From assembly GCA_963663275.1 (NCBI GenBank), contig OY760183.1, positions 128,001 to 192,000 of the forward strand: 64,000 nt of DNA, written 5' to 3'. The DNA is from Chloroflexota bacterium. GTDB lineage: Bacteria; Chloroflexota; UBA11872; VXOZ01. The position numbers and the translations under genes are program-made. Below are positions 590 to 53,126 of the stretch, piece after piece; the first letter of the stretch is position 1; each line of letters begins with the position of its first letter. The notes below the pieces were generated by a model. The model searched no databases. It was not told where the DNA came from and was given only the letters and a program-made list of their open reading frames with translations.

Positions 590-2605
590 TCACTGGTGCG
601 GCGCCTTAACCCACACCGGACTCGACCAGGCCGCGTGGCCGTCGCTCTGCGTCACGCGCAGGTAGACGTAGGAGGTCTGTTCTCCCGCCAGTGGGAGCGT
701 CTCGGCAATCTCAGCGACGCGATCGCCGCCGGGCTGCGTGTGGACAACCCTGCCGTCGCAGACCAGTTCCAGACTGGCAATCGGGGCCGTGCCGAGCACA
801 CGCGCCGTCACCGCGACCGCCGCCGCGCTTGCCGTGAATTCTTCACCCATGCCGCGGCCGTCCACGCGAAAATCGAGCACGATGCGCGCGCCGGTGGTGG
901 CGTAGCAGCGGCGTTCTTTGAGCGCCTGGATAATCGCCGCGCGCGTCAGTTCCGGCGCGATAACGGCGGTCAGGCCGCCCGTCTTATGGTCGTGGAAATC
1001 CACGCCGGCCATGGCGCACGTGTTGCGGCCCGGCTGGGCGTGGTGGCTGTCGGTGCCGCCCACGAAGCCGAGGCGGTGTCCCATTGCCAGCGCGTCCTGG
1101 GCCGACGCGCCGCCGCCGCCAATCACGGTCGCGCCGCCGGGTTCGTCGGTCTCGAACGCGCCCCGGTTTTGCGCAATCTCCAAGACGGTCTGATACTCCG
1201 CATTATGCCGTTGCCAGTCCTGCACCCGCCAGTTCTGATACCCGCCTTCAGACGTGACGTTGATGTGATGCGGCACGACCACCGCGCCGGTGCCCGCCAG
1301 TGCCGGCCAGATTTCCTCGATTTTACTGGTGGTCACGCGCTTGCCCTCGTCGGGATAGAGGATGACGCGGTGTCCGGCGGTGGGATCGCTGAGTTCTATA
1401 GCGACAAGCGGCGCGAACGCTCCGGCCTCATAGAAGCCCGCGATGACTTCCTGATACTCCGCCCAATCGTCAGCGCGTGGTACAGACCACAGGGATTCGA
1501 TGTTCTTGGGCGGCGGAAACCACGCCACACCCACACAGTCGAGGCCGGACACGTCGCGGGCGTAGCGGAACGCCTCCGCGTACGTGCCCACGCCGTGCGC
1601 CATGAACGGCCCGTGGGGGCGGTGGCTGGGATCGAGCGCGCCGGGGGCGTGGGTGTGCAGGTCGCCAAAGAAGATGCGGTCGCCGCCGGCCTCCACTACG
1701 TCGATCGGATTGCTGACGCCGGATACACCGGCTTCCCAGGCCGCCGCCGTTACCGTGACCGGCCCGGCCGCGTTCCGGGAGACGATGAATGGCCCCAGCC
1801 GCGCCGCGCCGCCGTCGCTGGCCGTGATGCCGCAGTTTTCAGGCGCGCTGATGCCGCCCGGCCGCGTAGCAAGTGCGATTTCGCCCGCAAAGTCCGTACA
1901 GACGTTACCAAACGCATCCTCGACGCGCACGAGCACGGAGAATTCCTCACCGGCAGTCACCCTGGCGGGCGCAACCACGCCCAACCGCGCCGGTGGCCCG
2001 GCGACGACGTCAACCGTTGGCAAATCCGGCAGGAGCCGGTACCCCTTGGGGTCGCCGCCGGGATAGCGCGGATTGCTGTAACTGGCGTTGCCAAGCGGGT
2101 CCACCAGCACCTGAAAGTGCATCTCGTTCATGGCGACTTCCTGCGCCCGCGCCCGCTCGTAGAAGCCGGGTATAAACGAGCCGGCGTCACCAAGCGTGAC
2201 CGCGATTTCCTCGCCGGCCCGCAGCGCGGCGCCCTCTACCGTGACGAAAACGCAGGGAAACTGCGCGTGGTGGTACTTGAGCGGATAGTCGTTGCGCACG
2301 CGCACGGAAACGCCGCCGCGGCCAGTGGTAGTCGCGGTAACGTGGCCGAGCCGCCAGCGCACGCTGTGGACGCACGGCGGCACGACGGCAATGCCGCCGC
2401 CGGGCGCGATTCCTTGGCTGCCCGCCGTATAGGTAATCGTCCACGTGCCGAACGCGCCCGCCGCGACCGGGCCGGACGGGTCCAGCGCGCAGTGGCCCAG
2501 CTCCGCCCCCAAAGCCGCGCCGCCCGCCGCCGCCGTGACCTGCACGCCGTGGGTAACACCCTGATCCCGCGAACCCGAATGTGCGGACCCGTTGCCGTCG
2601 CTCAT
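590..2605 (-). CDS. DUF3604-like / PHP-fold metal-dependent hydrolase with N-terminal beta-rich domains
   Basis: FGDLHTH, VPHH, GFVGGTDSH, RRCYATTG and C-terminal AWSSPVW motifs; ATG at 2605 preceded by GAGGGAAGG. Confidence 0.7.
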   Translation of the reverse strand: MSDGNGSAHSGSRDQGVTHGVQVTAAAGGAALGAELGHCALDPSGPVAAGAFGTWTITYTAGSQGIAPGGGIAVVPPCVHSVRWRLGHVTATTTGRGGVSVRVRNDYPLKYHHAQFPCVFVTVEGAALRAGEEIAVTLGDAGSFIPGFYERARAQEVAMNEMHFQVLVDPLGNASYSNPRYPGGDPKGYRLLPDLPTVDVVAGPPARLGVVAPARVTAGEEFSVLVRVEDAFGNVCTDFAGEIALATRPGGISAPENCGITASDGGAARLGPFIVSRNAAGPVTVTAAAWEAGVSGVSNPIDVVEAGGDRIFFGDLHTHAPGALDPSHRPHGPFMAHGVGTYAEAFRYARDVSGLDCVGVAWFPPPKNIESLWSVPRADDWAEYQEVIAGFYEAGAFAPLVAIELSDPTAGHRVILYPDEGKRVTTSKIEEIWPALAGTGAVVVPHHINVTSEGGYQNWRVQDWQRHNAEYQTVLEIAQNRGAFETDEPGGATVIGGGGASAQDALAMGHRLGFVGGTDSHHAQPGRNTCAMAGVDFHDHKTGGLTAVIAPELTRAAIIQALKERRCYATTGARIVLDFRVDGRGMGEEFTASAAAVAVTARVLGTAPIASLELVCDGRVVHTQPGGDRVAEIAETLPLAGEQTSYVYLRVTQSDGHAAWSSPVWVKAPHQ

Positions 2606-2630
2606 CGACGTCCTTCCCTCAATCACCCTC

Positions 2631-2822
2631 GTAGCGCGGGGGTTCATCCCCCGCCTCTTGGCTGATCACCCTCGTAGCGCGGAGGCTCGTCCCCCGCCTC
2701 TTGGTTCAACATCACCGTAGCGCGGGGGCTCGTCCCCCGCCTCTTGGTTCAACATCACCGTAGCGCGGGGGCTCGTCCCCCGCCTCCTCGCCCCGACGCA
2801 GGTTACAAACCTGCGCTACCGG
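2631..2822. repeat. Tandem array of 4 GTAG-type REPs (43-bp period) followed by a CGCAGGTTACAAACCTGCGCTAC REP
   Basis: GTAGCGCGGRGGYTCRTCCCCCGC at 2631, 2674, 2717, 2760 with near-identical linkers. Confidence 0.9.
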
Positions 2823-2871
2823 AAATCCGCAATTGCAAACCTGTTTGCGGCCTCATGCCAACGCGGCGGCG

Positions 2872-3642
2872 TTACACGTCGAACAGGCGCGCCGCGTTCT
2901 CCTTGAACAGCATTCGCTTGACCGAATCCGCAATCCCCGTCTCGGTCTCGATGCTCAGCTTGGCGGATTCATGATAGTGCAGCGGCGAGTTGGAGCCAAA
3001 GAGCAGGTGCTCCGGCCCGATGCTCGCGCAGAGTTTCGCCACGTCGTGGATCGGCCCCTGCACGCGGCTGTTCTCCACGTAGAGGTTAGCGCGCTCGTCC
3101 ACGCTCCGCCAGATGCCGGTCACCTCGCCAAACCGCCCGGCGGTCACCAGAAAGCGCACCTCAGGAAAGGCATTGACCGTCTGCGCGATTTCGCCGGCCG
3201 CCACGTCGGGCACCCGCACCAAGCGGTGGTGATGCCGCACGTCTTCCAGGCCGACGGCGATGAGGACGATCAGGTCATGCTCCCGCGCGATTTCCAGCAA
3301 ACGCAAGCACTCCCGACCCAAAAGCTCGTACTGGTGGTAGTTGGGATGCAGCCGCAGGTTCTTCACGCCCAGTTCGTCTATGCAGATATGCAGGTCTTCG
3401 TCCCAGCCCGGATACGCCGGATTGATGGTGTAAGCCGGAATGAAGCGGGCCGGATGCGCCCGCGCGATGCCGTGCAATTCGCGGTTGCCGACCAGCAGGT
3501 CCTTGAAGAAGACGTTCTCCAGGCGCGAGACTACGGCCCGCTCGATGCCAAGCGCGTCCATCTTGCGCAGCAGGTTCTCCGGCTGGGCATACGGCAACCG
3601 GCGGAAGGGCCACTCGCCCACGTAGGCATTGCTATCGATCAT
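2872..3642 (-). CDS. Amidohydrolase_2 family metallohydrolase
   Basis: MIDSNAY start, LRLHPNY, LLFGSNSP, LFKENAARLF; metal ligands partly non-canonical. Confidence 0.8.
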   Translation of the reverse strand: MIDSNAYVGEWPFRRLPYAQPENLLRKMDALGIERAVVSRLENVFFKDLLVGNRELHGIARAHPARFIPAYTINPAYPGWDEDLHICIDELGVKNLRLHPNYHQYELLGRECLRLLEIAREHDLIVLIAVGLEDVRHHHRLVRVPDVAAGEIAQTVNAFPEVRFLVTAGRFGEVTGIWRSVDERANLYVENSRVQGPIHDVAKLCASIGPEHLLFGSNSPLHYHESAKLSIETETGIADSVKRMLFKENAARLFDV

Positions 3643-3745: not shown

Positions 3746-3906
3746 GCTGATAGGGGTATGTACTTCAAAATAGACTTTACCTGTCATTCCGAACGGAGCG
3801 GAGCGAAGAGTCGCTAAGAGCGCGGAATCTAAGGCATGGCCCTGCGGGATCAACACTTCTAGATTCCTCGCTCCGCTCGGAATGACATTTATGTACCCTT
3901 GTCAGC
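3746..3906. mobile_element. MITE-B copy (TIR GCTGACAGGGGTA) carrying a TGTCATTCCG-type REP pair
   Basis: GCTGATAGGGGTA...TACCCTTGTCAGC enclosing TGTCATTCCGAACGGAG...CTCCGCTCGGAATGACA. Confidence 0.75.
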
Positions 3907-9914: not shown

Positions 9915-10577
9915 AGACGCAGGTTACAAACCTGCGCTACCGGACGCCGGCGGTTGGACGCAGGTTGCAAACCTGCGCTACCCAGATATGGGGATGCTCC
10001 CCACCGTAGCGCGGGAGCTTGTCCCCCGCCTCTTCGCACACAGAGGGCTAACTCACGCTACCGGACGCAGGTTTCAAACCTGCGCTACCCGGAAATGGGA
10101 ACGCTTTCCCATCGTTGCCCGGGGGCTTGTCCCCCGCCGGTTCGTGTCATTCCGAGCGCAGCGAGGAATCTGGAGTTCATACTGTAACGAACCCTGGATT
10201 CCTCACTGCGCTCCGCTCCGTTCGGAATGACAGGTGTTCAAGGCGCGCGGGTGTGTCCCCACCGATGCCGCGCAAACGTAGCGCGGGGGCTTGTCCCCCG
10301 CCTCTTCGCACCCAGGGGCCTAACTCACGCTACCGGACGCAGGTTACAAACCTGCGCTACCCAGAAATGGGAACGCTTTCCCATCGTTGCCCGGGGGCTT
10401 GTCCCCCGCCGGTTCGTGTCATTCCGAGCGCAGCGAGGAATCTGGAGTTCATACTGTAACGAACCCTGGATTCCTCACTGCGCTCCGCTCCGTTCGGAAT
10501 GACAGGTGTTCAAGGCGCGCGGGTGTGTCCCCCAACGTTGCCGCGCAAACGTAGCGCGGGGGCTTGTCCCCCGCCTC
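9915..10577. repeat. REP mosaic including a ~272-bp tandem duplication
   Basis: Units start at GTAGCGCGGG 10006, 10278, 10551; each contains three REP families. Confidence 0.9.
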
Positions 10578-10758
10578 TCGTCCCGTAGGCAAGACCGCAT
10601 CGCACCTCGTAGGTAAACCGCTCAATGGGCGCAATTCCCTGTGGTACAATAGGGGCGCGCGCGGGCGGCATGAGTCTCGTTCGGCCTTGTGAGGCGCGCG
10701 GGCGGCATGAGTCCGGCTTGACTCCACGAGGCGCGTGCGCGCGCGGAGGACTTGTCAA

Positions 10759-13233: not shown

Positions 13234-13265
13234 CCCCCTCACCCCGGCCCTCTCCCCCAGGGAGA

Positions 13266-13414
13266 GTTGACAGGGGTAGGCAACTGTCATTCCGAGCGGA
13301 GCGAGGAATCTAGAGTTGCTGGAATTACGGGTCCCCCCTCTAGATTCCTCTCTCCGCTGCGCTCCGCTCGGAATGACATGCTAAGCCGGCTCAAGTTTGC
13401 CTACTCCTGTCGGC
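13266..13414. mobile_element. MITE-B copy with 9-bp target duplication in a CCCTCTCCC hairpin
   Basis: CCAGGGAGA|GTTGACAGGGGTAGGCAA...TTGCCTACTCCTGTCGGC|CCAGGGCGA. Confidence 0.8.
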
Positions 13415-13438
13415 CCAGGGCGAGGGGGGTAAGAACGC

Positions 13439-21464: not shown

Positions 21465-21654
21465 GCTGACAGGAGTAGGCACTCTACATCCGCATTCTCG
21501 TGTCATTCCGAGCGGAGCGCAGCGGAGAGTCGAACCCTGTTCGCGGAATCCAGGGCAGAGAACCGCAAATCCAGCATCTCTAGATTCCTCGCTGCGCTCC
21601 GCTCCACTCGGAATGACACGTTAAGCCGATAATCAATTGTCTACCCTTGTCAAC
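21465..21654. mobile_element. MITE-B copy
   Basis: GCTGACAGGAGTAGGC...GTCTACCCTTGTCAAC inside a CTCCCTCTCC/GGAGAGGGG hairpin. Confidence 0.75.
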
Positions 21655-27191: not shown

Positions 27192-27305
27192 GCTGCGCCC
27201 TCTGTTTCCGTCTTGCCGCATTCGTCGTCGATGCGTAATCCAGTGTAGCACGTCTGCTAAGTCAGCGGCGGCGCGCCGTTGGTGTCCCCGCCACACCACT
27301 AACCC

Positions 27306-27431
27306 GTAGCGCGGGGGCTTGTCCCCCGCCAGGTGGGGCAAACGTCAAGCATCGACGTAGCACCGGGGCTTGTCCCCCGCCAGGTGGGGCAAACGTCAAC
27401 CATCCACGTAGCGCGGGGGCTTGTCCCCCGC
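27306..27431. repeat. Tandem array of 3 GTAG REPs (51-bp period)
   Basis: GTAGC..GGGGCTTGTCCCCCGC at 27306, 27357, 27408 with near-identical linkers. Confidence 0.9.
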
Positions 27432-27471
27432 ACCGTTGCCGCCATTCACCCGTAGCCCGGGGGCCTGTCCT

Positions 27472-31925: not shown

Positions 31926-32099
31926 GGGACTTTGCAAAACCCCTTGCACATCGAGGGCTGACAAGCGTATGAAAGTGTCATTCCGAGCGGAGCGAGGAAT
32001 CTAGAAGGGATGATGGTGCAGGGCAGCGCCTTAGATTCCGCGCTCTTAGCGACTCTCCGCTGCGCTCCGTTCGGAATGACGGAAGTGTGCACAGGTCGC
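31925..32099. mobile_element. Degenerate MITE-A containing a MITE-B left half
   Basis: GGGACTTTGCAAAACCCCTT...ATCGAG followed by GGCTGACAAGCGTA; ends GGAATGACGGAAGTGTGCACAGGTC. Confidence 0.6.
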
Positions 32100-33810: not shown

Positions 33811-33981
33811 GCTGACAGGGGTATGCATTCAATATCCGACTTCACGTGTCATTTGTATGCCACGTGGACTGTCATTCCGAGCGGAGCGAGGAATCTAGAG
33901 TGCTAATCGTTCGGGACAGCGCCCTAGATTCCTCTCTCCGCTGCGCTCCGCTCGGAATGACAGATTTTCGCCCTTGTAAGT
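33811..33981. mobile_element. MITE-B copy (right TIR degenerate)
   Basis: GCTGACAGGGGTATGC...CCCTTGTAAGT inside a CCCTCACCC..TTTCCC/GGAGAGGG hairpin. Confidence 0.7.
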
Positions 33982-34075
33982 CGAGGAGAGGGAACCGGAG
34001 CGTATTAGCTAGTCTGCTGTCCTCCGGGAGTGGGAAGCGAAGCGGTGGTGGGGGGAAGCTGACGCTGGGGGGCGT

Positions 34076-34631: not shown

Positions 34632-34890
34632 GTGCACCGGTCGGCGGGGGACTAGCCCCCGCGCTACGTTTTCAATGTCAGCTGCACCGGTCGGCGGGGG
34701 ACGAGCCCCCGCGCTACGTTAGTAACGTCAGTTGCGCCAATCGGCGGGAGACTAGCCCCCGCGCTACAGTTAACCGGTAGGGGCAGGCCTTGTGCCTGCC
34801 CGACCTGAGAGGCGCGGCACTAGCCCCCACGCTACGTTGTTGGTTGCCGTTTGTTCCACCCGGCGGGGGACAAGCCCCCGCGCTACATTG
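34632..34890. repeat. Array of ~5 reverse-oriented GTAG REPs plus a GTAGGGGCAGGCC REP
   Basis: GCGGGGGAC(T/A/G)AGCCCCCGCGCTAC, first three at ~50-bp period. Confidence 0.88.
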
Positions 34891-34908
34891 TTGGCTGGGT
34901 GCGCGCGG

Positions 34909-41705: not shown

Positions 41706-41995
41706 ACGAAAGTCCTTAGGCGTTTCTCATGCTTGCGTCACGGCATAGTATAGAATGAGAGAACGAGCCCGGCTACGCAGGCGCTGTGCCGGGCCTCTTG
41801 CTTGTCACTCTGAACGGAGTGAAGAGTCTCGGCCAGTTACCGGTAGGCCACGTTGTTGCCGGGCGAGAAACCTGGATTCCTCGCTGCGCTCGGAATGACA
41901 GCCGTGCGCGACATAGTGACAGTCGCGCGCGGCATAGTGACGGTCGCGCGCAACACACTAGTGGCATCCGGCCGGGCCGCGCGGAGAGAGACCCG

Positions 41996-42793
41996 ATGAT
42001 CATCGACGTCCACGTGCACATCCGCTCGGAAGCGATGCTCGCCCGCGCGCTGCGCCAGGCGGCGCAACTGGACATGATACTCTGCCTGAACAGCATCAAT
42101 CTGGAGGGCAGCAGTTCGCCCAACTTTCCGTCGCGGCGGTTCGTCTCACGCTGCAACAACCGCACGGCGGCGGTGGCCGCCGCCCACCCGGAGCGCGTCA
42201 TTCCCATGTGGTACCTCAATCCCGCCCACGGCCAATTTGCGGTGGATGAGTTGGAACGGCGGGTTGAGGAACATCGCGGCCCGCAGGGGGTCAAGCTCTG
42301 GACGGCGGTCAAGGCCAACGACCCGCGCGCGGACGGCATCTTCGCGGTCTGCGCCGACCGCCGGCTGCCGGTGCTCCAACACACGTGGCTGGAGGTGACC
42401 GGCAACCTCCCCGGCGAGACCGATCCGTGGGACATGCGCGCCGCCGCCCTACGGCATCCCAACGTGCCCTTCTTCTGGGGGCACGCCAGCGGCGACGTGG
42501 AATACACGGTCAAGCTGGCGGGCGGCCTGCCGAACGTGTATCTGGACATCGGCGGCTGCGAGGCGACCAACGGCTACACGGAGATGCTGGTGAAATACGT
42601 CGGCGCGGAGCACATCGTGCAAGGCAGCGACGGCACCGGCCGCTCTTTCACCTCGCAGTTGGCCAAAGTGTACGCGGCGGACATAGCGCCGGCGGAAAAA
42701 GAGCGGATTCTCTACAAGAACGCCCAGGCCCTCTTCGCGCGGCAGACCTACGGCGATGAGGCTTCCCCTCACCCCCAGGAGACCTTTGCATAA
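41996..42793 (+). CDS. Amidohydrolase_2 family metallohydrolase (paralog of 3920-4711)
   Basis: IIDVHVH, GVKLW, LQHTWL, GSDG.GRSF.SQLAKV; stop codon lies inside the MITE-A TIR. Confidence 0.85.
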   Translation: MIIDVHVHIRSEAMLARALRQAAQLDMILCLNSINLEGSSSPNFPSRRFVSRCNNRTAAVAAAHPERVIPMWYLNPAHGQFAVDELERRVEEHRGPQGVKLWTAVKANDPRADGIFAVCADRRLPVLQHTWLEVTGNLPGETDPWDMRAAALRHPNVPFFWGHASGDVEYTVKLAGGLPNVYLDIGGCEATNGYTEMLVKYVGAEHIVQGSDGTGRSFTSQLAKVYAADIAPAEKERILYKNAQALFARQTYGDEASPHPQETFA

Positions 42794-42918
42794 CCCCTTC
42801 CCCATCGAGGGGGAAGGTTGGGATGGGGGTGCAAAGGATTGAAAACAGGCTATTTTTAGTTGTAAATGCGGTCTGGATTCCGGCTTTCGCCGGAATGACA
42901 GAGTTATGCAAAGGTCTC
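42779..42918. mobile_element. MITE-A (TIR GAGACCTTTGCATAAC), empty at the MITE-B target
   Basis: Perfect 16-bp inverted repeats GAGACCTTTGCATAAC/GTTATGCAAAGGTCTC, flanked by CCCAG on both sides. Confidence 0.8.
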
Positions 42919-42928
42919 CCCAGGGAGA

Positions 42929-43072
42929 AGGGGGCATTTGAATGTCATTCCGAACGAAGCGCAGCGGAGAGAGGAATCTAGGGCGTTGCCTTGCAAGATC
43001 CTCATTCCTAGATTCCTCGCTCCGCTCGGAATGACACGTGAAGTCGGATGTAGTGTGAATACCCTTGTCAGC
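42929..43072. mobile_element. MITE-B copy (left TIR partly deleted)
   Basis: CAGGGAGA|AGGGGGCAT...TACCCTTGTCAGC|CAGCGAGA. Confidence 0.7.
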
Positions 43073-44138: not shown

Positions 44139-44168
44139 TTGCAGACAATAGGATATCCCTCTCCTGGG

Positions 44169-44315
44169 GAGACAGGGGTTTGTATTCTATAATCGACTTC
44201 ACGTGTCATTCCGAACGGAGCGCAGCGGAGAGAGGAATCTAGAGATGCTGGCTTTGAAGGGCTGTGCTCTAGATTCCTCTCTCCGCTCGGAATGACACTT
44301 ACATACCCCTGTCAC
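44169..44315. mobile_element. MITE-B copy between the ABC ATPase and permease genes
   Basis: GAGACAGGGGT...TACCCCTGTCAC with TGTCATTCCG REP pair, between CCCTCTCC half-sites. Confidence 0.65.
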
Positions 44316-44585
44316 CCTCTCCCGTGGGAGAGGGCCGGGGTGAGGGGATTCCCATGCTGCCCATTTTCGTCATAGCCAAACTTCACGGCCCACGATAGCT
44401 CGCAGATTGAACTCCCTCTCCCGCGGGAGAGGGCCGGGGTGAGGGGAAACCGATGCTGCCCACATTCGTCACAGCCAAACTTCACGGCCCACGATAGCTC
44501 GCAGATTAAGCTCCCTCTCCCGCGGGAGAGGGCCGGGGTGAGGGGAAACCGATGCTGCCCATATTCGTCATAGCCAAGCTCACGT
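44315..44585. repeat. 99-bp tandem triplication of hairpin + RBS + first codons of the permease gene
   Basis: ATGCTGCCC at 44354, 44453, 44552. Confidence 0.9.
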
Positions 44586-45394
44586 TGCAGGAAGGCGCGC
44601 GCAAGAAAGCGGTGCTGGGCGGCTTGCTGCTCGCCGCCGCGTTCCTCACGCTCTACGGCCTGGGCATGTACTTCGTGATGCGCGACCTGTCGGCGCCGGA
44701 GAACTTCATCAATCCGCGGGTCTTCCGCGACGCCGTATCCGGCCAACTGCTCGCCTCGGCGCTCAACGTGGCCGGCATGTTGACCGCGCTGGTGGCGATC
44801 TTCACCTCGGCCGGCGCCATCGCCACCGAGGTTGAGCAGAACACGCTGCACGCCATCATCCCCAAGCCGCTGGCGCGCTGGCAGGTGCTGGCGGGCAAGT
44901 GCTGCGGCCTGGGCGCGATGTCCGCCGCATTCGCCGTCGGCACCACCCTGGCTTTGCTGGCGCTCACCTGGCTCTTTGCCGGATTCTTCTCGTGGTCCAG
45001 TTGGCAGTCGGCGCTGCTGCTGGGACTGCTGGGGGTGTTGCTTACCTGCGTCACCGTGTGCGCCAGCACCATGCTCTCCACGCTCACCGCGGGCGTGACC
45101 GTCATCATGCTCTACGGCCTGGCGCTGGTGGGCGGCATGGTGGAACAACTGGGCGTGCTGCTGCAGAACCAGGTGATGCAGAACATCGGCATCATCTCCA
45201 GCCTGCTGCTGCCCTCGGACGCGCTGTGGCGCATGGCCGCGCAACGGCTGGGCGTGCAGGAGTTCGCCGGACTGGCCGGCGGCCCGTTCGAGGGCTTCAG
45301 CCAACCCTCGGTGTTCATGCTCGCCTGGGTGCTCCTGTACATCGCCGCGGCCGTGCTGTTGGGCATGGGAGTCTTCGGGCGTAAAGACCTCTAG
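44552..45394 (+). CDS. ABC-2 type transporter permease
   Basis: IA.LTLQE..R, IATEVEQ.TL.....KPL.R...LAGK, 6 TM, F.RKDL end. Confidence 0.9.
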   Translation: MLPIFVIAKLTLQEGARKKAVLGGLLLAAAFLTLYGLGMYFVMRDLSAPENFINPRVFRDAVSGQLLASALNVAGMLTALVAIFTSAGAIATEVEQNTLHAIIPKPLARWQVLAGKCCGLGAMSAAFAVGTTLALLALTWLFAGFFSWSSWQSALLLGLLGVLLTCVTVCASTMLSTLTAGVTVIMLYGLALVGGMVEQLGVLLQNQVMQNIGIISSLLLPSDALWRMAAQRLGVQEFAGLAGGPFEGFSQPSVFMLAWVLLYIAAAVLLGMGVFGRKDL

Positions 45395-45426
45395 GCGCGC
45401 TGCCAGACGCGCGTTCCTTGTTACCC

Positions 45427-45601
45427 CAATGCTGTCGCATTTGGGAGTGGAGAGTAACGAATGTGAGCCTCTGCTCGGCTTGTCACAAGGTGTAGGGGCA
45501 CGACATGTCGTGCCCCTACACCTTGTTGCAGACAGGCCAAGCGCATTAGCAGCGCGGATTCGCCATACTTGCCTGAGTCGGAAGCTAAAGCGGCAGCATT
45601 G
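45427..45601. mobile_element. MITE-C copy
   Basis: CAATGCTGTCGCA...GCGGCAGCATTG, alignable over its length with 21746-21920. Confidence 0.85.
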
Positions 45602-45707
45602 TCCCCCTCACCCCGGCCCTCTCCCCAGGGAGAGGGAGTCACGCAGCCCGGCCCTCTCCCCGGGGAGAGGGAGTTTCTTCGCCCGGCGGCAGTGAAAATC
45701 GCGGCGC

Positions 45708-47042
45708 CTACGCCGGGGAATAGAACCGCCAACTGCCGATTTCGCCCTGGTTGCCCACGTCGTCTTCCAGCAATTCCGCGTAGTTCTCGGCGGCCTTGCG
45801 ATAAGCGGCGGCGTACTCTTCGATAATCTGCGGCCGGAACTTCTTGAACCACGGGATGCTGAACGCCCGGCCGCCGATGCTCTCGCTGGCCGGCAGGCTG
45901 CCGCGCGGCTGGCGCACGTCCCGGTTGCTATTGGCGATCACGGTCGGCTTGCCGTGGCCGTAGACGTCGGCCTCGTGGAAGAGCGGGTGCAGGTGCAGGG
46001 GATTATTGGTGCCCGGCCCGCAGCGCGCGCCCTCGGCGGAAACGGCCTGGGCAAAGCGCGAAATCGAGAGACCGCCGACTTCCTCCGGTCGATACAGGCC
46101 GCGCGCCGCGTACCAGCCGCCCATGGTGCTGCCGGAGTCTTTGGCCGGTCGATGCGCCGCGATGCCCGGCGCGCCTTCCAGCAGATCCCAGAAGTAGTTC
46201 ATGGCCTGCTGGATTTCCGCCACGTAGCCGTCGTAGTACTTCAGCGTCACTCGTCCCATGGCGGAACTCAACTGGTTCACGCGGAACTTGTAGCCGCCCA
46301 GGGGCAGTCCCGCCCAGGGCTTGAGGTACTCGGTCTCGATGTTTTCCGCGGAATACATGTCGTAGTGTCCAAAGGCGATGGCGCGGTCGTAGATTTCGCG
46401 GTCGTTGGTGGTCAGGATACCCGCCTCGCCGGTGGCGAAGGACTTGCCGCTCATGAGCGACATTGCGCCCACGTCGCCAATCGCGCCCACCGTGCGGCCC
46501 TTGTAGCGCCCGCCGTGGGCGTGGGAAACGTCCTCGATCACCTTGACGTTGTGCCTGGCGGCGATCTCCAGGATGGGGTCCATGTCGGCGGGATGGCCGC
46601 AGTAGTGCACGGGCACGATGGCCTTGGTGCGCTCGGTGATGCGGTGCTCGATGTCGTTGGGATCGATGCAGAGCGTATCCGGGTCGATGTCGGCAAAGAC
46701 GACGGTCGCGCCCAAAGACAAGGCCGGCAGGCAGGAGGCCCAATAGGTCACGCTGGGAGAGATGATTTCGTCGCCCACGCCCACGCCGCAGCCGTACATG
46801 GCGGCGCGCAGGGCCTCGGTGCCCGTGTTCGCGCCCAAGGCGTAGGTCGTGCCGACCCAATCGGCGTACTCTTTCTCGAACTGCCGGGTCACGTCCGTGC
46901 CGGACATGCCGCCCCGGCGCAGCACTTCCAGCACGGCTTCTTCGTGCTCGGGCGTGACGATGGGCCAGTTGAAGATGTCGCCGGGCGCGCTCCGCACCGA
47001 CTTGGGGCCGCCCAGCAACGCCAGCTTCGACTTGACTTGCAT
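45708..47042 (-). CDS. DegT/DnrJ/EryC1/StrS PLP-dependent aminotransferase
   Basis: TGTEAL, VHYCG, IEDVSHAHG, SLMSGKSFATGEAG. Confidence 0.9.
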   Translation of the reverse strand: MQVKSKLALLGGPKSVRSAPGDIFNWPIVTPEHEEAVLEVLRRGGMSGTDVTRQFEKEYADWVGTTYALGANTGTEALRAAMYGCGVGVGDEIISPSVTYWASCLPALSLGATVVFADIDPDTLCIDPNDIEHRITERTKAIVPVHYCGHPADMDPILEIAARHNVKVIEDVSHAHGGRYKGRTVGAIGDVGAMSLMSGKSFATGEAGILTTNDREIYDRAIAFGHYDMYSAENIETEYLKPWAGLPLGGYKFRVNQLSSAMGRVTLKYYDGYVAEIQQAMNYFWDLLEGAPGIAAHRPAKDSGSTMGGWYAARGLYRPEEVGGLSISRFAQAVSAEGARCGPGTNNPLHLHPLFHEADVYGHGKPTVIANSNRDVRQPRGSLPASESIGGRAFSIPWFKKFRPQIIEEYAAAYRKAAENYAELLEDDVGNQGEIGSWRFYSPA

Positions 47043-48724: not shown

Positions 48725-49250
48725 CCACGCGGACAGGCCCGCGCGCTACGGTTTACCGGTAGGGGCAGGCCTCGTGCCTGCCCTAATCGCGAGACGGCAG
48801 TCATACCCACGCTCGCGCAGGTTACAAACCTGCGCTACCGGAGGGGGGCAAGCCCCAATGTTGAGCCATAGAGCGTACGAGCACTGTACTACCCGTTCGT
48901 GCTGAGCCTGTCGAAGTATGAACGGGTAGTACAGCGCGCCGCAACCGACCCGCCGTTCACCTTTCGACAGGCTCAAGGCGAACGGCGGGTTGGAGGATCA
49001 TCCTCTTTTGAAGAATTGAAGAGACAGCGGTCTGCGCTACCGGAAGGGGCGTTGCGCTACGGGAGACGACATCGCGCCGCCGGAGGCGGGGGACAAGCCC
49101 CCGCGCTACGGCTTACCGGTAGGGGCAGGCCTTGTGCCTGCCCTAGTCGCGAGACGGCAGTCATGCCCTCGCTCGCGCAGGTTGCAAACCTACGCTACCG
49201 GAGGGGGCGTCGCGCCGCCGGAGGCGGGGGACAAGCCCCCGCGCTACGTC
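48725..49250. repeat. REP mosaic: two ~120-bp direct repeats flanking a truncated MITE-C (from 48856)
   Basis: GCTACGG.TTACCGGTAGGGGCAGGCC...AAACCT.CGCTACCGGAGGGGG occurs twice; GGGGCAAGCCC|CAATGTTG. Confidence 0.8.
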
Positions 49251-49299
49251 AAGGGGACGTGAATAGGGGCGGTCCTAAGCCGCCGGGTCCGAGGGCGGA

Positions 49300-51794: not shown

Positions 51795-51933
51795 TGCTCT
51801 TGCGCGAGTGCTTACGCGCCCTTTCAAGCGCCGGCTAAACGCTCACTAAACGCCTTGCAAACGCCCTCGCTTCACAGCCCTCCCTAATTTGTGCCGTTGA
51901 TGGATATTCAAGATTGCCTTTGCCACACCGGTA

Positions 51934-52247
51934 GAGATCTTTGCATAACTCCGTCATACAGGTGAAAGCCCCCCCGGTGTGGGGGCGCAGAATCCAGGGA
52001 GTTCTTACAACTAAAGACAGCATGAAGTCAAGCCATTCCACCGCCATCCCAACCTTCCCTCTCGAGGGCTGACAGGGGTAGGCATTCTACATCCGACTTC
52101 ACGTGTCATTCCGAGCGGAGCGCAGCGGAGAGAGGAATCTAAGGCTTTCGCTGCAAAAACGTCGGTTCTAGATTCCTCGCTCCGCTCGGAATGACACTTG
52201 CCTACCCCTGTCAGCCCTCGAGGGGGAAGGGGCTATGCAAGGGTCTC
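51934..52247. mobile_element. MITE-A with nested MITE-B (52068-52215)
   Basis: GAGATCTTTGCATAAC...GCTATGCAAGGGTCTC; inner CCTCGAGG|GCTGACAGGGGTAGGCA...TGCCTACCCCTGTCAGC|CCTCGAGG. Confidence 0.88.
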
Positions 52248-52265
52248 AGCAAACGCGGGCATCCC

Positions 52266-53126
52266 TCACACCGGCTCGCTCGTCCGGTTGATGCGCGCCA
52301 TGATCTCCGAGAGGCGCGACCAGTTTTGCAGCGTCATGGGAAGCACCAACGCGGATTCAACGAACTCCCACGAATAGCTGATGATAGAGAAGATCCTGCC
52401 GACCGTCACGGCCACGTACGCTGCCGCGAACCAGAGATTGAACACGATCAGTCCCAGCAGCACCGTATAGATCGCGCCGTAGACGTAGGCCTCCGTATCT
52501 GACAGCCTGATCTGGATCCGGCGCAGTCTCTGCAAATAGGAGAGAATGCCCACGGGCGACTGTGATTCCAGAAAGCGGACCTGCTGCTCCGTCTGCTGGT
52601 TATAGGCGGCGTTCAGCCGGTAGAAGCGCTTATGGGAAAGTGCGTAGAATCCGATCATCAGCACGGCGGCCGCGAGCGTTGCCAGGAACAAGACGGGATG
52701 AAAGGCGTACAGCACAATCAGCGCAATAATCAACTGCACCACGGACGCCATCACCGCCGGGGCCTCTTCCTCCAGGAAGTCGACCAGCTCGCGGCTCATC
52801 TCCAGTCTGGCGTTCAGCGTGGAAACCGGTATTCCCGCCGAGCGTCCGGTCAAGGCTTCACCGAGTTTGACCCCGATTGTGCCGTAGACGCGCGTATCGT
52901 ATAAGCGGCGCACGACGCTCACGCCAATCAGCGCGGCCAAGACCCCGGCCAGCCGCAGGAGCGCCGTCGGGTCGTCGGCCAGGAGGCCGTCAATGGCGAG
53001 TCCGATGAGCAACGGCGTAAACGCCGTCAGCGCCGTCTCGCAGAGCATGAGGAACCAGGTCAAGCTGATCGGGCGCAAGAACGTCCGCAGCAGCACGCCA
53101 ATGGTGAGCGGCTGATCCTGCAGCAT
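52266..53126 (-). CDS. Stand-alone ABC six-transmembrane domain protein
   Basis: PLLIG.AID.L, RR.YDTRVY, SRELVDFLE, RLSD.EA; no ATPase domain. Confidence 0.65.
   Translation of the reverse strand: MLQDQPLTIGVLLRTFLRPISLTWFLMLCETALTAFTPLLIGLAIDGLLADDPTALLRLAGVLAALIGVSVVRRLYDTRVYGTIGVKLGEALTGRSAGIPVSTLNARLEMSRELVDFLEEEAPAVMASVVQLIIALIVLYAFHPVLFLATLAAAVLMIGFYALSHKRFYRLNAAYNQQTEQQVRFLESQSPVGILSYLQRLRRIQIRLSDTEAYVYGAIYTVLLGLIVFNLWFAAAYVAVTVGRIFSIISYSWEFVESALVLPMTLQNWSRLSEIMARINRTSEPV

Follow-up and report, generated by a model that had tools for sequence, protein, structure and literature searches.

The question raised by this locus is what the short sequence that splits the hairpin of a longer repeat represents, which transposase could have moved it and what directs its insertion. 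The window analysed here is the whole stretch of 64,000 nucleotides from a Chloroflexota bacterium, corresponding to positions 128001-192000 of the one 3.53-Mb contig (G+C content 64.3%). The inserted sequence, designated MITE-B, is very probably a non-autonomous element of an approximately 1.33-kb Chloroflexota insertion sequence (IS) of the IS4 family, with which it has only its ends of roughly 17-19 bp in common; about 200 copies of it are present in this genome, where it is an orphan. The repeat in which the copy under study is found was designated MITE-A.

MITE-B, its host repeat and the copies in the window

The ends of the element, located at 52068-52084 and 52199-52215, are represented by GCTGACAGGGGTAGGCA and its exact reverse complement, and there is no space for a transposase gene between them. 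The whole sequence forms a single long hairpin (DNA fold -50.6 kcal/mol, z -9.3) and is shared, without any difference, by six further copies in the genome. When up to three mismatches were tolerated, the window had 10 occurrences of the 17-mer end, compared to 0.24 expected, and none of 100 shuffles reached 10. The sole Rfam match in the region 51800-52400 was to a miRNA model, scored below the threshold (25 vs 70 bits), and was dismissed as a chance match to the hairpin.

The flanks of the element share seven exact bases, or eight with one mismatch, and the duplication grows to 10 bp with one mismatch when the terminal G and C are counted with the flank rather than with the element. The target-site duplication (TSD) claimed in the original prediction for 52060..52223 is indeed present, apart from a small misreading of its left copy, which was given as CCTCGAGG and is actually TCTCGAGG.

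MITE-A, the ends of which can also be written as GAGACCTTTGCATAAC, has the native hairpin CCTTCCCC-CTCGATG-GGGAAGG. It had been predicted that the window contains both an empty and a filled version of the same target, and this was borne out by alignment: the reverse complement of 42779-42918 matches 51934-52247 on both sides of the insert, with a single CCTCGATGG in the former and the insert plus its duplication in the latter. The empty site is paralogous, being another copy of the same repeat family, and not orthologous. An orthologous empty site was sought in 16 congeners and none was readable because synteny is lost at the 52068 locus, the two flanking genes not being adjacent in other species. 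Genome-wide, MITE-B splits the hairpin in 31 out of 135 MITE-A loci, and 81 MITE-A copies are uninterrupted.

Table 1 Coordinates of MITE-B, its target-site duplications and the MITE-A copies in the window
Feature	Position	Strand	Remarks
MITE-A host repeat	51934..52247	+	Ends GAGA(T/C)CTTTGCATAAC ... GCTATGCAAGGGTCTC; MITE-B splits its CCTTCCC..GGGAAGG hairpin loop
Left target-site duplication TCTCGAGG	52060..52067	.	7/8 bases identical to 52216-52223
MITE-B copy, 148 bp	52068..52215	+	Perfect 17-bp terminal inverted repeats
Right target-site duplication CCTCGAGG	52216..52223	.	
Uninterrupted MITE-A, paralogous empty site	42779..42918	-	Target 9-mer CCTCGATGG at 42802-42810
MITE-B, 161-bp variant	3746..3906	+	Duplication not readable
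MITE-B	13266..13414	-	9-bp duplication (8/9) in CCCTCTCCCCC..GGG palindrome
MITE-B, 190-bp variant	21465..21654	+	In CCCTCTCCC..GGAGAGGGG palindrome; duplication decayed
MITE-B, single end	31957..32080	- (profile orientation)	Junction in degenerate MITE-A hairpin, position as at 52068
MITE-B, far end decayed	33811..33987	- (profile orientation)	Between CCTTTCCCCC and GGAGAGGGAA
MITE-B, one end decayed	42929..43072	+ (profile orientation)	Adjoins empty MITE-A copy
MITE-B	44167..44316	+	In CCCTCTCC..GGAGAGGG palindrome

All eight copies in the window that possess at least one end are located in or beside C-run/G-run palindromes, just as had been noticed before, with the CCCTCTCC..GGAGAGGG type in six cases and the CCTTCCC..GGGAAGG type in two. 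The copy at 44167..44316 is followed by three 99-bp tandem units, each of which starts with the CCCTCTCC..GGAGAGGG palindrome. The copy at 31957 does occupy the equivalent position claimed for it, with the left junction ...CACATCGAGG/GCTGAC in a degenerate MITE-A end; no duplication is readable there because the right end is missing. Two further duplications listed in the original prediction exist in a less exact form than stated: the 9-bp one at 13257-13265 and 13415-13423 is CCAGGGAGA vs CCAGGGCGA (8/9), and the 8-bp one at 42921-42928 and 43073-43080 matches in 7/8 positions and lies beside a decayed end.

Genome-wide copies and the insertion target

The nhmmer profile search of the whole genome resulted in 234 MITE-B loci occupying 29.7 kb, or 0.84% of the 3.53 Mb, of which 140 possess both ends, 27 possess one end and 67 consist of the inner part alone. 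The size of the element varies from 146 to 239 bp with a mode of 148 bp, and the ends are conserved among the copies according to the profile consensus. Seven copies, including the one at 52068, are identical; half of the 148-bp copies (22/44) have no more than five differences from the master sequence, and the remainder range up to heavy divergence. Such a pattern of identity would fit a recent burst superimposed on older copies.

Both termini could be located, with no more than two mismatches in 11, in 115 copies, and these were used for the study of TSDs. Exact flanking direct repeats were found in 50 of them (8 bp in 9, 9 bp in 33 and 10 bp in 8), and repeats of 8-11 bp with up to one mismatch in 83, including 57 of 9 bp and 16 of 8 bp, leaving 32 copies without a readable duplication. 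In the control, where left flanks were paired with the right flanks of other copies, exact repeats numbered only about 3, rising to about 8 when one mismatch was allowed. Co-variation of the terminal G/C of the element with the flank was seen in 1/5 informative cases here and in 10/13 in other genomes, so the duplication would be either 9 bp with the ends as drawn or 11 bp with an element reading CTGAC...GTCAG.

The 57 reconstructed 9-bp sites are highly uniform: there is a C just before the duplication in 55 and a G just after it in 54, with T at position -3 in 46 and A at position +13 in 48. The target is two-fold symmetric and can be written as TCCC/CCnnnnnGG/GGGA, i.e. a pyrimidine/C-run, about 9 bp and a purine/G-run. 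The YYYYC-N9-GRRRR pattern fits 49/57 sites vs 1.1% of random non-coding positions.

The sites were further assigned to three classes of hairpin, namely C-type (CCTCTCC..GGAGAGG), A-type (MITE-A, CCTTCCC..GGGAAGG) and G-type (GGGGGACAAGCCCCC). These classes, together with a family-independent site rule, replaced a generic hairpin test (a stem of at least 6 pairs, one mismatch permitted), which could not discriminate, 30% of random positions passing it. At least 76 of the 115 sites belong to the three families (40 C-type, 26 A-type and 10 G-type), and a large part of the 39 "other" sites consists of MITE-A hairpins with an unrecognised duplication. Random genome windows fall in C-, A- and G-type hairpins in 0.66%, 0.17% and 0.9% of cases, and non-coding windows in 2.2%, 0.6% and 3.7%, about 6.5% in sum, the non-coding baseline being derived from crude GC3-based gene calls with 78% coding. 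The genome-wide share of copies in hairpins, the comparison proposed in the original prediction, is therefore at least 66% vs about 6.5% of non-coding windows. Copies elsewhere in the genome thus carry TSDs and are placed non-randomly, and the predicted insertion, strongly directed to palindromes, is supported. The G-type hairpins, which host 10 copies, carry a GTAG tag; GTAG is described as a tag of REP elements (PMC3733652).

This preference for hairpins is not explained by the simple motif. Among the 8249 non-coding sites that fit it, as many as 6273 are outside the three families, and since only 24% are inside them, something more than the simple motif favours palindromes: the true motif may be a stricter, palindromic one, or else the structure of the DNA plays a part.

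When the flank motifs are considered, MITE-A is found on both sides of MITE-B in 33 copies and on one side in 11. The 33 insertions are all at the same nine bases. Since the symmetric target is found for the most part in loops and stems belonging to three palindromic families, MITE-B nests in other repeats, including MITE-A.

An insertion sequence with the same ends in other Chloroflexota

The end sequence GCTGACAGGGGTAKG was scanned in one genome per species, 185,579 species in total, giving at least 127 stretches. The autonomous IS with these ends, the existence of which had been anticipated, was found in other Chloroflexota genomes and not in that of the window: inverted end pairs located 1317-1381 bp apart are present in Chloroflexota/Dehalococcoidia metagenome-assembled genomes (MAGs), with at least 12 elements among the matches listed. 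The element at 2001-3332 of locus L077 (1332 bp) contains a single ORF of 400 aa and is flanked by the 9-bp repeat CCACGGGGA inside CCCCTCTCC..GGAGAGGGG. In each of seven uninterrupted cases one frame fills the element, coding for 400 aa in six loci and 416 aa in the seventh. The end of another such IS, in locus L060, has 19 nt in common with MITE-B, and a sister IS from another genus, with a protein 44% identical, has the end CTCACAGGGGTA.

The L077 transposase matches Pfam DDE_Tnp_1 (PF01609) with 39.2 bits vs a cut-off of 23, a domain common to several IS families, and its best NCBIfam model is that of the IS4 family, transpos_IS4_2 (E 4.9e-27), with 94.9 bits, which is below the cut-off of 152. 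In seven out of seven uninterrupted transposases, each from a different record, the residues D109, D172 and E275 are invariant with spacings of 62 and 102, as are Y268-x2-R271-x3-E275-x6-K282, which correspond to Y(2)R(3)E(6)K. According to De Palmenaer 2008 (PMC2266710), members of the IS4 family have a D(60-110)D(100-150)E arrangement, the Y(2)R(3)E(6)K signature and one ORF, and their duplications span approximately a helical turn. The partner IS shows the DDE spacing, the Y(2)R(3)E(6)K signature and the single ORF without a programmed frameshift, and 9/12 of the IS-sized elements among the matches listed have repeats of 8-10 bp, within the 8-13 bp of the IS4 family and in contrast to the 4-6 bp duplications of the families IS701, ISH3 and IS1634. 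Among the two-ended elements outside the genome of the window, exact 9-bp repeats were found in 19/47, with C before the duplication in 17/23 sites and G after it in 18/23 (all among the matches listed).

Relatives of the transposase are numerous, with at least 3532 at E<=1e-5 among 8000 metagenomic candidates scored. Among the 120 relatives listed, PF01609 is present in all those with a Pfam entry, and "transposase" is the sole name given to them by any source. The transposase profile had no match at E<=1 to PDB sequences, including that of the Tn5 transposase.

MITE-B and the IS have nothing in common past approximately 19 nt per end, and MITE-B is therefore not a simple deletion derivative of the IS. 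Its inner part of about 100 bp is a separate palindromic repeat, which occurs without these ends at 67 loci here and also in many congeners, and the same ends surround different inner sequences in other genomes. Judging by its composition, MITE-B can be considered an "ends-only" MITE, and its putative link to the transposase rests on the shared ends, the duplication length and the type of target. It combines inverted ends, small size, the lack of a transposase gene, many copies, a TSD, an autonomous IS with the same ends and empty sites, all of which are features of a MITE.

None of the inverted end pairs located 500-4000 bp apart in the genome of the window (up to three mismatches in 17, or one in 11-12) encloses a transposase; the sole such pairs are formed by neighbouring MITEs or enclose ABC-transporter genes at genome positions 44526-47012. 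The L077 transposase has no matches in this genome (G000), and the five DDE_Tnp_1 genes of this genome are those of two other IS, the ends of which are unrelated. With neither a matching transposase nor a long element with these ends, MITE-B is an orphan in this genome, although a plasmid carrying the IS could be missing, the assembly being one contig. The end 13-mer occurs 131 times in the genome of the window, 31 times in one congener and 1-7 times in four others, and is absent from 10/16 congeners; a genus belonging to another family also has a few occurrences. Within the genus, pieces of a broken transposase homologue are present in one fragmented assembly only. The likeliest history is a burst driven by the IS, which was lost afterwards. 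A literature search on miniature inverted-repeat transposable elements and Chloroflexi, which covered titles and abstracts and had ISfinder outside its scope, returned nothing on MITE-B.

By analogy with the chemistry of the family, a dimeric DDE transposase of the IS would bind the two inverted ends, MITE-B would be excised by cut-and-paste and joined to a target in which the two cuts are staggered by roughly one helical turn, and the repair of the stagger would produce the flanking duplication. The burst may have been driven by a transposase copy which has since been lost or is absent from the assembly.

Alternative explanations and related systems

The original prediction assigned the element to the IS1595 family (IS1016 group), with an IS1595-type transposase as the enzyme that moves it. 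The duplications of 8-9 bp and the GCTG-containing end do resemble those of the IS1016 group, and IS1595 transposases are common in relatives (27/41 genomes, 14/16 congeners), yet this assignment had to be abandoned as extremely improbable. The PF12762 domain was searched in the 41 genomes and had no matches in G000, the genome richest in copies, and only broken ones in G011, the second richest; the 10 best IS1595 loci in relatives have no GCTGACAGGGGTA-like end in the right place, and the partner IS gave no PF12762 match in the Pfam scan. All the long elements with these ends that were inspected code for a PF01609/IS4-type protein, with the full IS4 signature in the partner IS, and the modal duplication of MITE-B is 9 bp, not the 8 bp of the IS1595 family in the ISfinder tables. 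A different route of spread, in which MITE-B was inserted into MITE-A once and the composite was then copied by the IS5-type transposase of MITE-A, is given little credence. In the genome of the window there is indeed a resident parent of MITE-A, an IS5-family element sharing its ends, and the composites at 426558 and 3004789 have flanks identical over 26 nt on both sides. Against this, MITE-B lies in MITE-A in both orientations (18 one way and 15 the other), identical MITE-B copies are found in MITE-A copies differing in loop sequence, the four identical A-hosted copies have at least three distinct flank contexts and at least 71 of the 115 copies have no A-type flank. Both orientations and the presence of identical MITE-B in differing MITE-A copies point to repeated insertions rather than to one composite multiplied.

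As for the choice of sites, it is unlikely that DNA structure, i.e. an extruded hairpin or cruciform or a single-strand hairpin at the replication fork, is what is recognised, with the C-run/G-run logo being a by-product of the palindromes present. The concentration of at least 76/115 insertions in three palindromic families, despite only 24% of the motif-fitting sites being there, speaks for a role of structure, as does the presence of three further families of IS (IS5, IS481 and a second lineage of IS4) in the same palindromes here. However, there are insertions in homopolymer C or G runs and in non-palindromic sites that keep C at position 0 and G at position +10 (genome positions 431765, 2710944 and 3125557, loci L059, L081, L088 and L102), the duplication in the C-type (CCCTCTCC) hairpins is found at several registers off the dyad axis, and the characterised IS4-family transposases, those of Tn5 and Tn10, are established to act on duplex target DNA. 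That there is no real targeting, and that randomly inserted copies survived only inside harmless repeats, is very improbable. A compact genome would tolerate few other sites, and each of the 115 two-ended copies is flanked by non-coding DNA on at least one side, but the hairpin families make up too small a part of the non-coding windows to host at least 66% of the copies. Moreover, the seven identical copies, presumably the youngest, all occupy A- or C-type hairpins, the 33 A-hosted copies share one 9-bp position in either orientation, and the IS and its MITEs show the same site bias in unrelated genomes.

The preferred reading, a non-autonomous relative of an IS4-family element with its own symmetric target, can be compared with several known systems. 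The partner IS resembles the IS4-family subgroups IS10 and IS50 (of Tn10 and Tn5) in having a DDE transposase encoded by one ORF, with the Y(2)R(3)E(6)K signature and a D-D-E spacing within the family range, and in its length of 1317-1381 bp and its 9-bp duplication. It further resembles IS10 in that its ends read CT... when the outermost G is counted as flank, and a two-fold symmetric target preference is also known for Tn10. It differs from both in that its transposase is below the NCBIfam IS4 cut-offs and has no PDB sequence match to the Tn5 transposase, its target is a C-run/G-run palindrome and its hosts are Chloroflexota; the likeness is one of tabulated features. The values listed are 1200-1350 bp, CT ends and 9-bp repeats for IS10 and 1350-1550 bp and 8-9-bp repeats for IS50 (PMC2266710, Table 1).

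IS231 and MIC231 from the Bacillus cereus group, also of the IS4 family, likewise include short non-coding derivatives sharing only the ends and have a marked insertion specificity. The IS231 target is GGG(N)5CCC, a G-run followed by a C-run and so of opposite polarity to that of MITE-B, and the copy numbers are far lower. Insertion specificity, together with CAT ends and 10-12-bp duplications, is described for IS231 (PMC2266710).

Landing in abundant extragenic palindromes, which leads to nested repeats, makes MITE-B similar to the IS that target REP palindromes (Tobes and Pareja 2006, as cited in PMC3733652), such as ISPpu9 of the IS110 family (PMC12288879). Those are, in contrast, autonomous, belong to other families such as IS110, produce short or no duplications and use partly other chemistry, whereas the guest here is an IS4-type MITE and the main hosts are another MITE and the CCCTCTCC palindrome. 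The IS3 family is also represented among the REP-targeting IS. With the REP/REPIN elements of the RAYT tyrosine transposases MITE-B shares short length, abundance, hairpin formation and extragenic location. REPINs have a GTAG or CGTC tag and lack both TSDs and DDE-type terminal inverted repeats. The assignment of MITE-B to REP/REPIN was rejected, as it makes duplications and has DDE-type inverted ends which are without the GTAG tag.

A broader idea, which we regard as improbable, is that the C-run/G-run palindromes serve as shared landing pads, extruded hairpins rather than plain sequence being read by the IS4-type transposase and by at least three other families (IS5, IS481 and the second IS4 lineage). 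The palindromes would then act as evolved safe havens or decoys sparing the genes, and MITE-B might perhaps still be moving without a cognate transposase.

The general principles are unchanged by this work, as REP-targeting IS, IS4-derived MITEs and orphan MITEs were already known. The family assignment of the element is moved from IS1595 to IS4, and a widespread, apparently unnamed Chloroflexota IS4-type element is described together with MITEs sharing its ends. With regard to annotation, MITE-B explains approximately 0.84% of the genome and interrupts about a quarter of the MITE-A copies. The approximately 115 reconstructable sites, the sharp symmetric target, the MITE-in-MITE nesting and the clean orphan case make the system useful for studying the selection of palindromic targets by DDE transposases and the way in which bursts of MITEs come to an end.

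Insertion sequences in palindromic hairpins

The genome contains 135 loci of MITE-A together with the autonomous parent of this repeat, which resides outside the window and is represented by a single-copy IS5-family element (L166), which scores 297.6 bits with the NCBIfam model transpos_IS5_4, whose cut-off is 140. The element has the GGAGACCTTTGCATAAC ends in common with MITE-A and is flanked by TTCA within a CCCTCTCCC..GGGAGAGGG palindrome.

A 1.3-kb IS481-family element (score 290 bits, cut-off 224; ends TGTACAGTCC...) is present in seven near-identical copies, all seven of which are inserted in a CCCTCTCC..GGAGAGGG palindrome belonging to a hairpin family also used by MITE-B. There are also four copies of a second IS4-family element with a length of 1.23 kb and AATGTTGTCGCATTAA ends (156.9 bits with transpos_IS4_1, where the cut-off is 115). 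They are located within GTAG-tagged GGGGGCTTGTCCCCC hairpins and carry an apparent duplication of about 13 bp that would span the entire hairpin.

Positions of the repeats and insertion sequences
Feature	Sequence	Positions
MITE-A copies	window	42779-42918, 51934-52247
IS5-family parent of MITE-A (L166)	genome	1441790-1443215
IS481-family copies (L167)	genome	75956-77276, 385685-386987, 547855-549161, 1204517-1205833, 1599271-1600578, 2199215-2200524, 3082362-3083670
IS4-family copies (L168)	genome	381613-382844, 1063159-1064376, 1097913-1099226, 3018000-3019231
Lone MITE-B inner module	window	10143-10236, 10415-10508, 41800-41901
MITE-B copies with mismatched flanks	genome	938159-938332, 1342727-1342874, 441858-442005
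43-bp mini derivative of MITE-B	genome	44526-44568, 44700-44742
GTAG-tagged REP-like arrays	window	2624-2792, 9999-10583, 27299-27440, 34633-34901, 49075-49262 and others
Three tandem 99-bp units (family D14)	window	44315-44611
Lone GTAGGGGCACGGCATGCCGTGCCCCTAC palindrome (family D8), example	window	45489-45522
MITE-B-type ends with other interiors	other genera	loci L001-L014 (genomes G038, G026), L025-L151

Inner module and altered copies of MITE-B

The palindromic module in the interior of MITE-B (GTCATTCCGAGCGGAGCG...CGCTCCGCTCGGAATGAC) also stands alone, without the MITE-B ends, at 67 loci genome-wide, and is present in many congeners that have no MITE-B. A related motif, GTCATTCC...GGAATGAC, lies inside MITE-A and likewise adjoins elements in other genera.

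Some MITE-B copies show no duplication and have left and right flanks from different hairpin families, as expected if the chromosome had been rearranged by recombination between MITE-B copies. The mini derivative is apparently an internal deletion of MITE-B between two TGTCA motifs; it has the 9-bp repeat CCCTTTGAG on both sides and was duplicated together with some 174 bp of the sequence around it.

Local palindromic repeats and MITE-B-type ends

GTAG-tagged REP-like hairpins (CGTAGCGCGGGGGCTTGTCCCCCGC) form dense arrays in the window, often in tandem with a spacing of 43-51 bp, and are consistent with the GTAG REP superfamily, which has been described for Chloroflexi (PMC3733652). One MITE-B copy is followed immediately by the 99-bp tandem units, each of which opens with a CCCTCTCCCGYGGGAGAGGG palindrome.

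In other genera, MITE-B-type ends surround quite different inner sequences of 95-700 bp, including a GTAGGGGCACGGCATGCCGTGCCCCTAC palindrome that is found alone in the window. The MITE-B-type ends seem to acquire, or to be invaded by, local palindromic repeats.
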